Shown piece by piece: positions 1 through 4,146 of a stretch of 31,994 bases of DNA; the stretch's first letter is position 1, and each line of letters opens with the position of its first letter. The stretch covers positions 1-31,994 of the forward strand of contig JAFYBU010000081.1 in the NCBI GenBank assembly GCA_017540065.1, given 5' to 3'. The notes below the pieces were generated by a model. The model was not told the origin of the DNA. It worked only from the letters and a program-made list of their open reading frames with translations, and searched no databases. The position numbers and the translations under genes are program-made. Origin of the DNA: Alphaproteobacteria bacterium. GTDB lineage: Bacteria > Pseudomonadota > Alphaproteobacteria > CAAHEQ01 > UBA3637.

Positions 1-942
1 ATTATCCAAACATTCTTCACATATGCGCTTATCGCTACACCAAGGTTTACCTAATTTATCTTTTTCATCTTCACACCCTCTGGAATATCCGCCGGGTTGG
101 ATATCATGTGGAATACAATCAACACACTTATGGGTTTCCAAATCACACGCCTTTCCCGGACAATGGGCATCCTCTAAACATTCCACACAAGTATTTGTAT
201 GTTTTTCAGGATCCCCTGCATCACAATAAGTTTTGTCCGGACATTTACAAACACCACATTCATTTAATTCGGATTCTTTACAACAATTGTGGTGTTTATC
301 TTCGGTTGTTCCTTCGGGACAGAACCAACATTTCCCATCATAGTGATAGCTGGCCGTTGACTTAGGACAATTTCCGCCCCAAATTAAAGCCATAAAATGG
401 GTCCCCGTACGTTGCTCATTGCAAACTTCATCTATAATTTGCTCTTTTGTCTTCCCGGCCATTTTAGATAACCTTTTTTGTTCATTTCCGTCCAGTTTTT
501 TACCATTCAAATATTCTGACCCGATGGCAATCTGTTTACCTGCACCTACATCATACAAAAGGGAATCAAAAGCCCCACTGGCCAAAATTTCACGACAGGA
601 ATTATCTGTTATATTATTCACTTCGACTTGATAAGAATCCGTATAATTAGCAGAAACACTAACCCGGCCGTGATTCGCTGTTATCATTGTGACGGCATCT
701 TCACGTTCTGCTTCAGGATAGACGTTCTTCAAAAGTACCTTTTTATCATGACGAGGTTTAACACGGTTCAAACCATAACGTATACCAACTTCTGCCACCT
801 GCTTTACTGTTTGTTTATCTTGGTGTTTTCTGAGAATAAAACTGTACCCCAGTAATCCCGCAATTGTCAAAATAGCAATGATGACCAAAACAGCCAAAGT
901 TTCAAGCAATGAACGCCCAGTTTGTTGTGATTTTTCGCGCAT
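1..942 (-). CDS. Type IV pilin-like N-terminus fused to a Cys-rich repeat region (truncated by the window edge; not in the ORF track)
   Basis: Hand translation from ATG 942 (RBS GGAGG at 949-953) is open for 314 codons down to base 1. It starts MREKSQQTG|RSLLETLAVLVIIAILTIAGLLGY, followed by about 20 Cys in the last ~130 residues (e.g. TCVECLEDAHC, KCVDCI, ICEECLDN). Confidence 0.9.
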   Translation of the reverse strand, partial: MREKSQQTGRSLLETLAVLVIIAILTIAGLLGYSFILRKHQDKQTVKQVAEVGIRYGLNRVKPRHDKKVLLKNVYPEAEREDAVTMITANHGRVSVSANYTDSYQVEVNNITDNSCREILASGAFDSLLYDVGAGKQIAIGSEYLNGKKLDGNEQKRLSKMAGKTKEQIIDEVCNEQRTGTHFMALIWGGNCPKSTASYHYDGKCWFCPEGTTEDKHHNCCKESELNECGVCKCPDKTYCDAGDPEKHTNTCVECLEDAHCPGKACDLETHKCVDCIPHDIQPGGYSRGCEDEKDKLGKPWCSDKRICEECLDN

Positions 943-976
943 AGAAAACCTCCTGAATATACGTATACTCAAGCAA

Positions 977-1005
977 CGTATAACACATTTTTTTAGCCTT
1001 GACAA
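977..1005 (-). promoter_or_regulatory. Sigma70-type promoter for the Cys-rich pilin-like gene
   Basis: TTGTCA (1005-1000), 17 nt spacer, TATACG (982-977) with an extended TGn. Confidence 0.55.
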
Positions 1006-1029
1006 GAAATTTTTTGGGAAAAACATAAA

Positions 1030-1329
1030 AAATGAGGCCGTTCTGTTGCTAGGCCGACCCCTGCCCCACTAAAGCGTACAAATAGCTTTAGAATCAGTCG
1101 TTGCATCAGACGCTGTTAAGCGGCCATTGCAACAGGTGCAAAATTATCGTTTGCATCTATTTTTTTCAGCGCGATAACGGTGCTACCATACCGGATACCA
1201 AGCGAAATCTTTACTATGCGTGTCAACGCTATTTCGCCCCCGTTGGTGGAGGCGTCGGGTACCGCCCCCGAGTCCACTACATCTATTCCATTTGCCGTCT
1301 AGTATCATAGTCCTTGATAAATCAAGAAC
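1030..1329 (-). ncRNA. ssrA: Circularly permuted (two-piece) tmRNA
   Basis: Minus strand: the acceptor piece ends ...GACTCGGGGGCGGTACCCGACGCCTCCACCA (CCA at 1246-1244), then the coding piece starts GGGGGCGAAATAG (1241). The acceptor stem GGGGGCG/CGCCTCC has the G3.U70 Ala determinant. The tag ORF 1154-1116 reads ANDNFAPVAMAA*. Outer ends are approximate. Confidence 0.95.
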
Positions 1330-1335
1330 AATATA

Positions 1336-1363
1336 ATTATAGCATATTTTAAAGAAATGTCAA
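1336..1363 (-). promoter_or_regulatory. Consensus sigma70 promoter of ssrA
   Basis: TTGACA (1363-1358), 16 nt spacer, TATAAT (1341-1336) with an extended TGn. Confidence 0.8.
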
Positions 1364-1417
1364 CGAAAAGAGGGATTCTGCATCAAACCAAAAATGACGT
1401 CTGTCATTTAACCAAGC

Positions 1418-1864
1418 TTAACAGGGATCATAAATACGATCCTCATCAGCAACGTCATCACAACAACGCCCATTTTCGCGTTGCACGCGAGGATTATAGA
1501 TGCCGCCCGTTCCGGTTTTTTCCCATTGACACTGCGGGAAACTGGTTCCGACCAATCCTTTTATTTCCGCACAATCTTGTGTAAATTTGATTTTAACAAT
1601 ACCGTTTGTTTTGGCGGTAATCGTATCAATACAATCAGACAATTCCCCATCAATCATAGAGTTAATCTTATCTTTTGTAAGAGTCATTCCATGTGTCATC
1701 GCATACGTGGATGCCAAAGAAATTGTTTCGGTTATATCATTTGCTTTCATTTTTTGCATAGCTTTACGAAAACCTGACAAACCGCCTATGGTAATAATAG
1801 CGGCAATGGCCAGCACAGCCAACATTTCAATCATTGAACGCCCCAAATCATTATTTTTTTGCAT
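1418..1864 (-). CDS. Type IV pilin-like protein (148 aa, 6 Cys)
   Basis: MQKNNDLG|RSMIEMLAVLAIAAIITIGGLSGF: Gly -1, Glu +5, hydrophobic helix. GGAGG RBS. Confidence 0.9.
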   Translation of the reverse strand: MQKNNDLGRSMIEMLAVLAIAAIITIGGLSGFRKAMQKMKANDITETISLASTYAMTHGMTLTKDKINSMIDGELSDCIDTITAKTNGIVKIKFTQDCAEIKGLVGTSFPQCQWEKTGTGGIYNPRVQRENGRCCDDVADEDRIYDPC

Positions 1865-1884
1865 TTTCTGCCTCCTTGTGTTTT

Positions 1885-1913
1885 CAATATATCCCCTTTA
1901 TATAATATAGTCA
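1885..1913 (-). promoter_or_regulatory. Sigma70-type promoter for the 1864 pilin
   Basis: TTGACT, 17 nt spacer, TATATT on the minus strand. Confidence 0.55.
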
Positions 1914-1965
1914 AGAGATTTCTTTTATTATCCAAGGCATCATTCAGATAAAAAACACAAAATTA

Positions 1966-1981
1966 TTAACAAAAGGTTAAC
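1966..1981. promoter_or_regulatory. CtrA-type binding site
   Basis: TTAA-CAAAAGG-TTAAC matches the alphaproteobacterial CtrA consensus TTAA-N7-TTAAC. It lies between divergent pilin genes. AT-rich DNA makes chance matches possible. Confidence 0.5.
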
Positions 1982-2141
1982 AAATTAAAAAAAGTTGAAA
2001 ATAGGGCTTGATTTTTCACTGAAAAAGGTCAAGAGTGGACTTCGTAAGATCTCCCCAAGGGGGAAGCATAAAGCGATTTATGTACCCATAAGGGAGGTAA
2101 AAGTTAACTTTTACAAAAGTAAAAAGAAAGGAAAATTTAAA

Positions 2142-2543
2142 ATGAAAACAAATGAAACAGGCCGTTCAATGGTTGAAATGCTGGGCGTTTTGGCCATTAT
2201 CGGTGTTTTGTCTGTGGCCGGTATCGCCGGATACACACAGGCAATGAAGAAAAACAAAATCAATAATGCTGTTGCAGAAATTTCTATGGCAGTTATTTTA
2301 GCAAAGACAGGTAATGGTGGTGAAGGGCTTACCTCTGGTGGCACTGCCAATCTTTCCGATTTAGGCTTTAACGGTAAAGTCCTCACAGCAGCAACCATTG
2401 CAAATGAAAATGGTGAGAAAGATTATAAAGTTTCCGGCATCACTGTGAAAGAATTGGATTGTACAGACTTGACAAGTGTAGCTCCAAGTGTAGCACGTTC
2501 ACCTGCAGCCACGAAAGCCGGTTACTACATCGACTGCGAATAA
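2142..2543 (+). CDS. Type IV pilin-like protein, candidate major pilin (133 aa)
   Basis: Start reassigned from 1995 to ATG 2142 (AAAGGA RBS). MKTNETG|RSMVEMLGVLAIIGVLSVAGIAGY. Two C-terminal Cys (DCT...DCE), as in a pilin D-region. Confidence 0.9.
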   Translation: MKTNETGRSMVEMLGVLAIIGVLSVAGIAGYTQAMKKNKINNAVAEISMAVILAKTGNGGEGLTSGGTANLSDLGFNGKVLTAATIANENGEKDYKVSGITVKELDCTDLTSVAPSVARSPAATKAGYYIDCE

Positions 2544-2670
2544 GAAAGGAGAATGAAAATGAAAAATAATGAAACAGGTCGTTCAATGGTTGAAATGCTG
2601 GGCGTTTTGGCCATCATCGGTGTTTTGTCCGTGGCCGGTATCGCCGGATATTCCATGGCAATGAAGAAAA
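2151..2670 (+). repeat. Two near-identical 103-nt pilin 5' segments (2151-2253 and 2568-2670)
   Basis: Manual alignment gives 8 mismatches in 103 nt. The first 84 nt differ only at 4 synonymous third positions. The sequences diverge downstream. Confidence 0.85.
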
Positions 2671-2987
2671 TTAAAGTGAATGATATTTTGTCAATTGCTT
2701 CACAATGTTCCATCTTGGCCCGCACCTATCAAGGTATCGGAGCAACCACAGCAACTTCATGTACTGCTTTGGGTATTGATCCAGACGAAATTCCATCAGG
2801 GATTTCTTCAGCCTCCTTTACAGGAAAATTTGAAGAGGCAGTAGCTGGACAAAACGGACATCCTGCTAGAGTAGTAGTGAATTTGACTGCAGAAGATAAT
2901 AATCAATGCAGCCAATTGAAACAAATGGTTGCAAATACTAGTACTTGCAATGGTAGTGCTGCCACACTTTACTTCCTTATGGATTAA
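2559..2987 (+). CDS. Type IV pilin-like protein (4 Cys)
   Basis: MKNNETG|RSMVEMLGVLAIIGVLSVAGIAGY. ATG 2559 has better spacing to AAAGGAG (2545-2551) than ATG 2553. Confidence 0.9.
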   Translation: MKNNETGRSMVEMLGVLAIIGVLSVAGIAGYSMAMKKIKVNDILSIASQCSILARTYQGIGATTATSCTALGIDPDEIPSGISSASFTGKFEEAVAGQNGHPARVVVNLTAEDNNQCSQLKQMVANTSTCNGSAATLYFLMD

Positions 2988-3001
2988 TTTCAATCCGTAT
3001 C

Positions 3002-3036
3002 AAAAAAAGCATCCCGTTTTTGCGGGGTGTTTTTTT
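3002..3036. terminator. Intrinsic terminator after the pilin pair
   Basis: A7, stem GCATCCCG/CGGGGTGT, then a T-run. Confidence 0.8.
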
Positions 3037-3050
3037 ATGAAAAATCCCCC

Positions 3051-3079
3051 TTGCATCAAATAAAAAAATATGCTATACA
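3051..3079 (+). promoter_or_regulatory. Sigma70-type promoter for the 3104 pilin
   Basis: TTGCAT, 17 nt spacer, TATACA with an extended TGn. Confidence 0.6.
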
Positions 3080-3103
3080 AATTTCATTAAAGGAGGAATT
3101 TTC

Positions 3104-3523
3104 ATGTTTCAAAAATCGCAACAATCCGGTCGTTCAATGATTGAAATGTTAGGCGTTTTAGCCATTATTGGCATTTTGTCCGTGGCCGGCATTGCCGGAT
3201 ATACTCAGGCAATAAAGAAAAATACAGTAAACGATATTCTTTCAGCGGCAACCACGTGCGCTATTTTAACCAGAAGTTACAAGGGTGGCGACATCGATGT
3301 GGGGAAAAATTGCACAGATATCGGTTTAGAACCCGAAGCTATCCCCAGCGGTGTTTCCATCACGGGAAAATATGATGAAAGTCAAAATATAGTAACCGTC
3401 ACCGTAACCGCACAAAACGAAGAACAATGTTTGGCTGTGGCTGCCGGCGCAAAAGGACGCAGAGATAATTGCGCTACCATCGGGGGATATAAAACAGATA
3501 TCATCACCAATTTTAATGATTAA
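3104..3523 (+). CDS. Type IV pilin-like protein (139 aa, 4 Cys), paralog of the 2559 gene
   Basis: MFQKSQQSG|RSMIEMLGVLAIIGILSVAGIAGY. AAGGAGG RBS. Shares VNDILS, C-x-IL-x-R-x-Y, C...G..P..IPSG and a later QC with the 2559 product. Confidence 0.9.
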   Translation: MFQKSQQSGRSMIEMLGVLAIIGILSVAGIAGYTQAIKKNTVNDILSAATTCAILTRSYKGGDIDVGKNCTDIGLEPEAIPSGVSITGKYDESQNIVTVTVTAQNEEQCLAVAAGAKGRRDNCATIGGYKTDIITNFND

Positions 3524-3540
3524 AATATTTTCAGCCCAAT

Positions 3541-3569
3541 AAAAAACCCGCCATAAGGCGGGATTTTTT
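3541..3569. terminator. Bidirectional terminator between the pilin and efp
   Basis: A6-CCCGCC-ATAA-GGCGGG-A-T6. Confidence 0.85.
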
Positions 3570-3582
3570 AATCATTACCTGT

Positions 3583-4146
3583 TTATTTTGCGCGTTCCAC
3601 GTAAGAGTTGTCAATGGTGGAAACAACAATCTTTTCACCCGCATTCACAAACGGAGGAACCGTGGTACGAATCCCGTTTTCCAAAACGGCAGGTTTATAC
3701 GAAGATGTTACAGTTTGATTCTTTAAGGCCGGTTCTGTTTCCGTAATTGTTAAAACAACATGCGGCGGTAAATTCACGGAAATGGGTTTCCCTTCAATAA
3801 AATTCACTGTAACAGGCATATTATCTTGCAAATAAAGAGCTTTATCACCCATTGTTTCTGCCATAATTTCAAATTGATCATAGGTTTCGGAATTCATAAA
3901 GCACAATTTTTCACCTTCACGATACAAATAGGTGCAATCAAATTCTTCACTCATCAACTTTTCAACCGTATCAGCCGTGCGCCAACGTTGTTCTGTCTTT
4001 AACCCGGAATCTACACCACGCATTTCCACTTGGATAAAAGCGCCACCCTTACCCGGGGTAATGATGTTAATTTTGGTAACCAAGTATTGTTTACCGTTGT
4101 GTTCAATAACCCAGCCGGGTCTGATTTGGTTTGCTTGTTGTTTCAT
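3583..4146 (-). CDS. efp: Elongation factor P
   Basis: N-terminal KOW-like IRPGWVI, PGKGGAF loop with the modifiable Lys, and YKPAVLENG...VPPFV..GE.I motif. Confidence 0.97.
   Translation of the reverse strand: MKQQANQIRPGWVIEHNGKQYLVTKINIITPGKGGAFIQVEMRGVDSGLKTEQRWRTADTVEKLMSEEFDCTYLYREGEKLCFMNSETYDQFEIMAETMGDKALYLQDNMPVTVNFIEGKPISVNLPPHVVLTITETEPALKNQTVTSSYKPAVLENGIRTTVPPFVNAGEKIVVSTIDNSYVERAK

Follow-up and report, generated by a model that had tools for sequence, protein, structure and literature searches.

Five pilin-like genes with arginine after the leader glycine

The first 3,523 nucleotides of contig JAFYBU010000081.1 (assembly GCA_017540065.1; Alphaproteobacteria, GTDB lineage CAAHEQ01; UBA3637) raise the question of whether genes that place arginine at what would become the first residue of the mature protein (+1) can encode type IV pilins and, if so, which machine would assemble them. 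The window, by which we mean the whole stretch of DNA analysed, is 31,994 nucleotides long and corresponds to contig C70 of its metagenome-assembled genome (MAG; 662 kb, 103 contigs, 59.7% complete, 39% G+C). Five open reading frames (ORFs), here called pilins A to E, lie at its start. Taking all of the evidence below as a whole, the best explanation is that they are likely to be true genes for type IV pilins, of a class particular to the lineage. Their layout is as follows (aa, amino acids; the slash marks the predicted cleavage site).

1 to 942, minus strand: pilin A, N-terminal 314 aa, MREKSQQTG/RSLLETL, 21 Cys; the ORF continues past the contig end
1418 to 1864, minus strand: pilin B, 148 aa, MQKNNDLG/RSMIEML, 6 Cys; a syntenic 151- or 143-aa gene is found on the metagenome contigs L099 and L103
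2142 to 2543, plus strand: pilin C, 133 aa, MKTNETG/RSMVEML, 2 Cys; candidate major subunit, with many same-leader orthologues
2559 to 2987, plus strand: pilin D, 142 aa, MKNNETG/RSMVEML, 4 Cys; begins 15 nt after C, with an alternative ATG at 2553
3104 to 3523, plus strand: pilin E, 139 aa, MFQKSQQSG/RSMIEML, 4 Cys

For each ORF we chose the ATG downstream of a Shine-Dalgarno site (AGGAGG, AAGGAGG, AAGGA, AAGGAG and AAGGAGG for A to E). In pilin A the ATG at 942 is the better start, because the longer reading from the ATG at 1026 would abut a tmRNA gene. An initial annotation, made from the sequence alone, had described five ORFs with a short leader ending in Gly, then RS[ML][VIL]E and a hydrophobic helix, and all five were verified at the same coordinates: the leaders (9, 8, 7, 7 and 9 aa) are hydrophilic and Gly-ended, the words RSLLE, RSMIE, RSMVE, RSMVE and RSMIE follow in A to E, and each runs into a hydrophobic stretch of at least 20 residues. 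Its Cys numbers (about 20, 6, 2, 4 and 4) agree with our counts. The ORF on the minus strand from 942 is real and of pilin type, but the protein is much longer, and the window covers no more than its N-terminal 314 aa.

The five-gene array is confirmed as real and far beyond chance. A degenerate DNA pattern for G-R-S-M-[VI]-E-M-L-[GA]-V-L-A gave 6 matches in the source MAG, and the reversed pattern, run as a control, gave 0 matches in 401 genomes. The order of a giant ORF (minus), a small pilin (minus), three small pilins (plus), efp (minus) and epmA (plus) is kept on three independent metagenome contigs (L099, L102 and L103). A regular-expression search of all six frames recovered three further G/R[ST]xxE ORFs in the source MAG, on contigs C12, C16 and C22, and no G/F pilin. 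Over the first 105 nt from the Gly codon, C and D are identical at 93/105 positions (2151-2263 against 2568-2680); each matches E at 86/105, and A and B at about 61-70/105. The 3' halves of C and D are strongly divergent, and the 5' similarity would be consistent with homogenisation of a 5' cassette or with recent duplication.

Arginine at +1 is practically invariant

Arg occupied +1 in all five window genes, in 8/8 of the genes in the MAG and in 118/118 homologues recovered with a word index. An exhaustive HMMER search with the diverged A-type head (1.84 billion representatives) returned 138 relatives; of 137 matches, 134 carry Arg at +1, and among the three exceptions one has Ala, one has His and one is without the motif. 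Positions +2, +3, +4 and +6 are variable among these 137 matches. The initial proposal of a distinct pilin class is upheld by this conservation. All copies recovered from a 99%-complete congener (G014) likewise bear Arg. One locus of the same genome (L118; G014:C17:24860-25200) reads SD/RNMVEIL, with Asp in place of Gly at -1, and is probably a degenerate, maybe decaying, copy.

The +1 residue of type IV pilins is expected to be hydrophobic or neutral, and Arg is found instead in all five window proteins. Reference R64-type pilins have Trp (G/WGFLEQ in PilS, G/WANLD in PilV), and sister systems from other Alphaproteobacteria, defined by the machine component PilO2, read G/F (L112) or otherwise. 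In CofA and TcpA systems the residue is Met. For type IVb pilins the literature records Met, Leu, Trp and Ser at +1 (PMC9045228). Arg-first pilins thus break the +1 rule of all bacterial pilin classes, and a limited literature search found no description of such a class.

The DNA motif was present in 24/401 sampled Alphaproteobacteria genomes, which represent about a dozen GTDB families and are all 0.9-2.5 Mb in size; the source records of homologues are almost all gut or rumen Alphaproteobacteria MAGs. Counting profile matches, a check proposed with the initial annotation, gave 13, 15, 19, 33 and 76 in five genomes of the genus. The extremes were 76 profile matches in G012 (same genus, 1.1 Mb) and 63 strict-motif matches in G402 (same family, 2.0 Mb), and many of the matches in these two genomes sit at contig ends, which suggests that the repeats break assemblies. 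As a rough estimate, up to 76 paralogues would amount to ~7% of the genes in a 1-Mb genome. Pilin E has 319 homologues, and a tblastn search of pilin E against 72,556 plasmids gave no match, so that at the sequence level pilin E is not a relative of the plasmid R64 pilS.

Predicted folds point to type IV pilins

A Glu at the fifth mature position inside a hydrophobic helix is the hallmark of the class III signal (PMC4471445). In a profile of 40 homologues, G/RSMvE lies in register with the G/FTLIE of solved pilins, and Gly-1 and Glu+5 are invariant across the alignments of homologues. The short leader, Gly-1, Glu+5 and small size are shared with type IVa pilins and with the pseudopilins of type II secretion systems (T2SS). 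The first part of the Arg-first helix (alpha1-N) is very like the FTLIELLVVIAIIGIL type of type IVa pilins, whereas Arg-Ser-Met stands here in place of the Phe-Thr-Leu of G/FTLIE.

The AlphaFold2 (AF2) model of pilin E (predicted local distance difference test score, pLDDT, 75.4) has a lollipop topology, with a long N-terminal helix (H5-58) and a small sheet. When this model was searched with VIA, a tool independent of Foldseek, CofA ranked at the top (Z 7.4, 127 residues) and TcpA next (Z 6.4), with about 12 more pilins or pseudopilins among the top 15. For the head of pilin A (residues 1-220), a model built from 35 HMMER relatives reached pLDDT 92.9 and a predicted template modelling score (pTM) of 0.85; its sole notable Foldseek match was the type IVb pilin PilS of S. 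Typhi (3fhu), and VIA placed only TcpA and CofA at Z≥5, followed by CofB and PilS. CofA and TcpA, from colonization factor antigen III (CFA/III) of enterotoxigenic Escherichia coli (ETEC) and the toxin-coregulated pilus (TCP) of V. cholerae, are thus the best structural matches to both AF2 models (127-151 residues), although sequence identity is only 6-15% and the Tcp and Cof machines are without PilO2. Among the structural neighbours of the two models, pilins, notably of type IVb, are clearly enriched despite moderate Z scores. Structure prediction had been named at the outset as a check, and both models show predicted pilin folds.

None of the five window proteins matched PilS_N (PF08805) or Bundlin (PF05307) at E≤1; many homologues of 160-240 aa from other genera bear precomputed matches to both.

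A thin-pilus-like machine is encoded on another contig

The window contains no assembly ATPase, secretin or peptidase gene, as the initial annotation had correctly observed. The machinery itself is carried by contig C95 of the same MAG. There, genes for a TcpQ/PilL-like protein, a PilN-family secretin, PilO2, a weak PilP-like protein, a T2SSE ATPase and a T2SSF platform protein follow one another in one direction (TcpQ, 66.8 bits; PilO2, PF06864, 89.7 bits; T2SSE, 220 bits; T2SSF, 85 bits). The secretin scores 269 bits against TIGR02520, slightly below the cut-off of 287.65. An identical order is found on two annotated reference plasmids, from Thalassospira and Mixta (L097 and L098), and a stand-alone PilT-like ATPase gene is located on contig C44. 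Just downstream of the pilus operon on C95, on the opposite strand, we also observed a gene for a SleB-like hydrolase (L092, 10551-10958, minus strand; Hydrolase_2, 70 bits), which might take the place of the R64 PilT transglycosylase in function.

The R64/IncI thin pilus (PilL-PilV) is a variant of type IVb pili to which S. Typhi pil, PAPI-1 and Burkholderia Tfp7 also belong. The C95 system has the same assembly genes in the same order, and the pilin genes of other families are placed as in R64 (PMC3984277): in four genomes of two other GTDB families (L105-L108), the platform gene is immediately followed, on its own strand, by one to four G/RSMIEML pilin genes, which occupy the pilS position. 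Further likenesses are the many homologues with PilS_N or Bundlin matches, the match of the pilin A head to S. Typhi PilS, and the enterobacterial PilU peptidase, which is likewise without A24_N_bact. In other respects the two differ. Besides Arg in place of Trp at +1, leaders are 7-9 aa here and 13-30 aa in R64-type pilins (PMC9045228), pilins B-E measure 133-148 aa against 180-240 aa (PMC9045228), the system is chromosomal with pilins unlinked from the machine in this genus, 13-76 paralogues stand against PilS plus a shufflon-varied PilV, and the catalytic domain of the peptidase is nearer PilD than PilU. The system is homologous to R64-type type IVb pili and would work like them, with pilins that depart from the type in leader length, in the 180-240 aa size, in the Trp, Met, Leu or Ser at +1 and in PilS_N.

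Co-occurrence is in keeping with this assignment. In a sample of 100 genomes of the class, in which related genomes are not independent, 6 had both the motif and PilO2, 3 the motif only, 7 PilO2 only (one of these, G058, is unpublished) and 84 neither. Every genome with at least three motif copies has PilO2.

Other machines were considered. PilO of type IVa systems (PF04350) gave no match in five genomes of the genus, a weak test in that the control matched in only 2/14 genomes. PilM_2 (PF11104) gave 20-22-bit matches in 350-aa ORFs of the same five genomes; we rejected these as signs of a type IVa machine, since the control also matches E. coli and B. subtilis, and take them for actin-like cell-division proteins. 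A Tad/Flp origin is unlikely, each complete relative having only three T2SSE-family ATPases: one of assembly type, one PilT-like and one of ~330 aa. The Arg-first genes are predicted to encode the subunits of an R64-thin-pilus-like type IVb machine and would not be orphans belonging to some unknown system.

The lineage peptidase is without A24_N_bact

Peptidase_A24 occurs once per genome in 17/18 congeners. The LLPD and GGGDxK motifs of catalysis are present in these congener peptidases, a CxxC...CxxC motif is not, and A24_N_bact (PF06750) gives no match even at E≤1; a canonical PilD of the same class, used as a positive control (L005), scores 106.7 bits for PF06750. A24_N_bact was absent in 22/25 motif-positive genomes. 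Reviews credit this domain with N-methylation of residue 1 (PMC4471445). Since the lineage peptidase, in which it differs from type IVa systems, is without the domain credited with methylation, the mature Arg1 is probably not N-methylated. We also considered a PilU-like peptidase and rejected it: in BLASTP the congener catalytic domain matched PilD (4e-12) more closely than Mixta PilU (3e-4).

Does Arg at +1 call for a special enzyme? An ordinary PilD-like peptidase may simply cut G/R without any co-evolved specificity, with Arg kept for assembly, for membrane extraction, for the fibre core, or as the frozen founder state of an expanding family. PilD is said, from work by Strom and Lory in 1991, to tolerate many +1 substitutions. 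Nothing in the congener peptidase sequence demonstrates a changed cleavage specificity, its motifs being canonical and its catalytic domain PilD-like; the G/F of sister PilO2 systems (L112) indicates that this type of machine accepts different +1 residues; and non-methylated +1 mutants are cited in a review as still assembled (PMC4471445). Yet the retention of Arg in 134/137 very diverged relatives, while +2, +3, +4 and +6 vary, exceeds what founder inertia would lead one to expect, and the loss of A24_N_bact coincides with the class in those 22/25 genomes. We regard cleavage by an ordinary enzyme as quite conceivable, though we stop short of calling it probable.

Pilins or uncleaved membrane anchors

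Several observations weigh against reading the five genes as pilins of the C95 machine. The scores of the five proteins for PF07963 (13.2-18.4 bits) all fall under the curated cut-off of 21.2, and TIGR02532 (cut-off 16.3 bits) is passed by pilin E alone (18.6 bits), with four of the five sub-threshold. Foldseek found nothing significant in the PDB for the pilin E model, and VIA Z scores of 6-7.4 are 'middling' on the tool's own scale. On C95 the platform gene is followed by opposite-strand genes, so that the pilins are not beside the machine in this genus; three motif-positive genomes, with one or two copies each, have no PilO2 match; and leaders of 7-9 aa with sizes of ~130-145 aa recall type IVa pilins, not those of R64. 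Nor can the majority of the paralogues be major subunits, at 13-76 copies for each 1-Mb genome. A profile search and a search with the congener peptidase protein did not find Peptidase_A24 in the source MAG, which is 60% complete. RNA evidence amounts to two contigs from one library that possibly contains DNA, with the tmRNA gene and efp uncovered. Finally, cleavage, the mature N-terminus and the pilus itself are all steps beyond the sequence, which we infer.

Some of these points would suit uncleaved signal-anchor proteins of the membrane or periplasm, in which GRSxxE would be a membrane-flanking motif, Arg would serve the positive-inside rule, and no link to a pilus would exist. Arg beside a transmembrane helix is normal for signal anchors, the curated pilin hidden Markov models (HMMs) are mostly sub-threshold, and the peptidase gene was missed in this MAG. 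However, hundreds of diverged homologues keep Gly-1 and Glu+5 without exception, both models adopt pilin folds, and in other families the genes occupy the place of pilS in a type IVb operon. The missing peptidase has its own explanation: in a congener (G007) the gene is flanked by a rodZ-like gene and yqeY/dnaG, contig C103 of the source MAG stops 85 nt past its rodZ-like gene, and because this is the expected peptidase site we read the absence as an assembly gap, in keeping with the 17/18 congeners that have the enzyme. We consider a signal-anchor origin very improbable.

The initial interpretation is borne out in part. The distinct class, the pilin fold, and a machine and peptidase in the lineage all speak for it, neither the filament machinery (on C95) nor the peptidase (in congeners) being lacking, and its suggestion of altered methylation gains indirect backing from a lineage peptidase without A24_N_bact. 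Its heterogeneous adhesive filament stays a proposal, a peptidase of different specificity is not demonstrated, and its claim about promoters, treated below, fared less well.

Giant Cys-rich members

Pilin A consists of a pilin head (residues 1 to ~190) followed by a Cys-rich region. Its orthologue on L099 (P0121) has at least 1,681 aa, is also open-ended and contains Cys-rich Ephrin_rec_like (PF07699) repeats, and the relatives of the A head found in the exhaustive HMMER search reach 2,152 aa with 254 Cys. An N-terminal pilin module joined to non-pilin modules defines modular type IV pilins, and pilin A alone of the five is built in this way. The fusion of a pilin head to Cys-rich repeats is the same as in that group; the giant scale, the Gram-negative host with a secretin and the Arg at +1 are different. 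CofB, the minor pilin of CFA/III, is an earlier example of a minor pilin that is large and bears additional modules. We propose that pilin A gives a giant Cys-rich repeat protein its pilin 'handle' and is probably a displayed adhesin. A second open-ended, pilin-handled Cys-rich protein of the same MAG (L093; G000:C16:2-1342, minus strand) has at least 447 aa before it runs off its contig; it contains repeated C..C..CSCSNR[RT]F units and has no Pfam match.

These proteins raise another possibility, namely that the majority of the family have no part in a long pilus at all. The class III signal would then be an export or anchor handle for a short pseudopilus or surface-display system, in which many Cys-rich modules are presented or released and one or two paralogues form the fibre, comparable to T2SS pseudopilins and the archaeal bindosome. 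Type IVb systems do secrete proteins, TcpF and CofJ in the TCP and CFA/III systems. The 13-76 paralogues per ~1-Mb congener genome, many of them 350-1,345 aa long, speak for such a role, as do the giant relatives of pilin A and the class III signals of bindosome proteins (PMC4471445). On the other hand, the small pilins B-E resemble ordinary filament subunits in both size and fold, the secretin, PilO2 and PilT-like ATPase are typical of true type IVb pili, and modular pilins are able to enter real pili. We think it unlikely that display accounts for most of the family, and the idea is compatible with, not exclusive of, the identification of these genes as type IVb pilins.

Promoters and non-coding elements

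Several further features lie among and beside the five genes.

1031 to 1367, minus strand: two-piece (permuted) alpha_tmRNA gene between pilins A and B (RF01849, 217.9 bits; RF04321, 135.6 bits)
1363 to 1336, minus strand: sigma-70-like site, perfect 12/12, assigned to the tmRNA gene
1914 to 1886, minus strand: sigma-70-like promoter candidate for pilin B, TTGACT-17-TATATT, 10/12, a consensus match only
1966 to 1980, plus strand: TTAA-N7-TTAA element resembling a CtrA box, between the divergent genes B and C and upstream of C
3547 to 3562: G+C-rich hairpin flanked by T runs on either side, separating pilin E from the convergent efp

Most of the pilin genes had been credited with their own promoter in the initial annotation, a claim that we find weakly supported: a good sigma-70-like site is present only for pilin B, and promoter-like matches within the pilin genes coincide with conserved GTTGAAATG coding words. 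C and D, 15 nt apart, are probably co-transcribed. A 638-nt contig from a sheep-gut RNA library extends over pilins C-D (2226-2862), which is weak evidence of expression given that the library may hold DNA. The putative CtrA-box-like element TTAACAAAAGGTTAA (TTAA-N7-TTAA) is identical on two related metagenome contigs (L099:6035 and L103:3458) though the flanks differ, and the 32-kb window has only 2 full TTAA-N7-TTAAC sites. The hairpin is likely a bidirectional terminator. Positions 1-3700 contain no tandem repeat of the kind seen in phase-variable microsatellite leaders.

A proposed assembly route and its meaning

In the route that we propose, prepilins would be made with a hydrophilic leader of 7-9 residues, and a PilD-related aspartic prepilin peptidase would cut after Gly-1, leaving a mature Arg1 and keeping Glu5; with a peptidase of this build, Arg1 would probably be left un-methylated. 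The subunits would then be polymerised by the R64-thin-pilus-like C95 system, the sole type IV filament machine of these genomes, and the PilT-like ATPase may drive retraction. Pilins B-E (126-140 aa when mature) would serve as small filament subunits. Pilin C may be the likeliest major pilin, because it is first in the plus-strand unit, has two Cys and an upstream TTAA-N7-TTAA box, and is covered by the RNA-library contig, itself a weak indication. Pilin A would act as the giant modular pilin and adhesin, and the product may be the heterogeneous adhesive filament suggested in the initial annotation.

The near-absolute conservation of Arg1 in very diverged paralogues points to a functional need in processing or assembly. 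Speculatively, the guanidinium of Arg1, one helical turn (i, i+4) from Glu5, could neutralise Glu5 in the membrane or between fibre subunits, and Arg1 could thereby take over what the (methylated) N-terminal amine is usually held to do. A broader view, which we offer tentatively and hold to be rather doubtful, is that Arg-first pilins carry a separate variant of the class III signal, co-evolved with a methyltransferase-less peptidase and relying on Arg1-Glu5 charge pairing, that underlies a massive surface-display repertoire central to the host-associated life of reduced gut Alphaproteobacteria.

Since a +1 Arg goes against the textbook expectation for this position, most of these genes escape curated pilin models and motif finders, and hundreds of loci in public data are without a Pfam call or a name. 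They offer a natural experiment on the purpose of residue 1 and its N-methylation, and on how Glu5 is neutralised when pilins leave the membrane and join the fibre. In widespread uncultured gut and rumen Alphaproteobacteria with 1-2-Mb genomes, the dominant expanding family appears to be that of Cys-rich modular proteins with a pilin handle, and this dominance points to attachment as a key part of the lifestyle of these bacteria.

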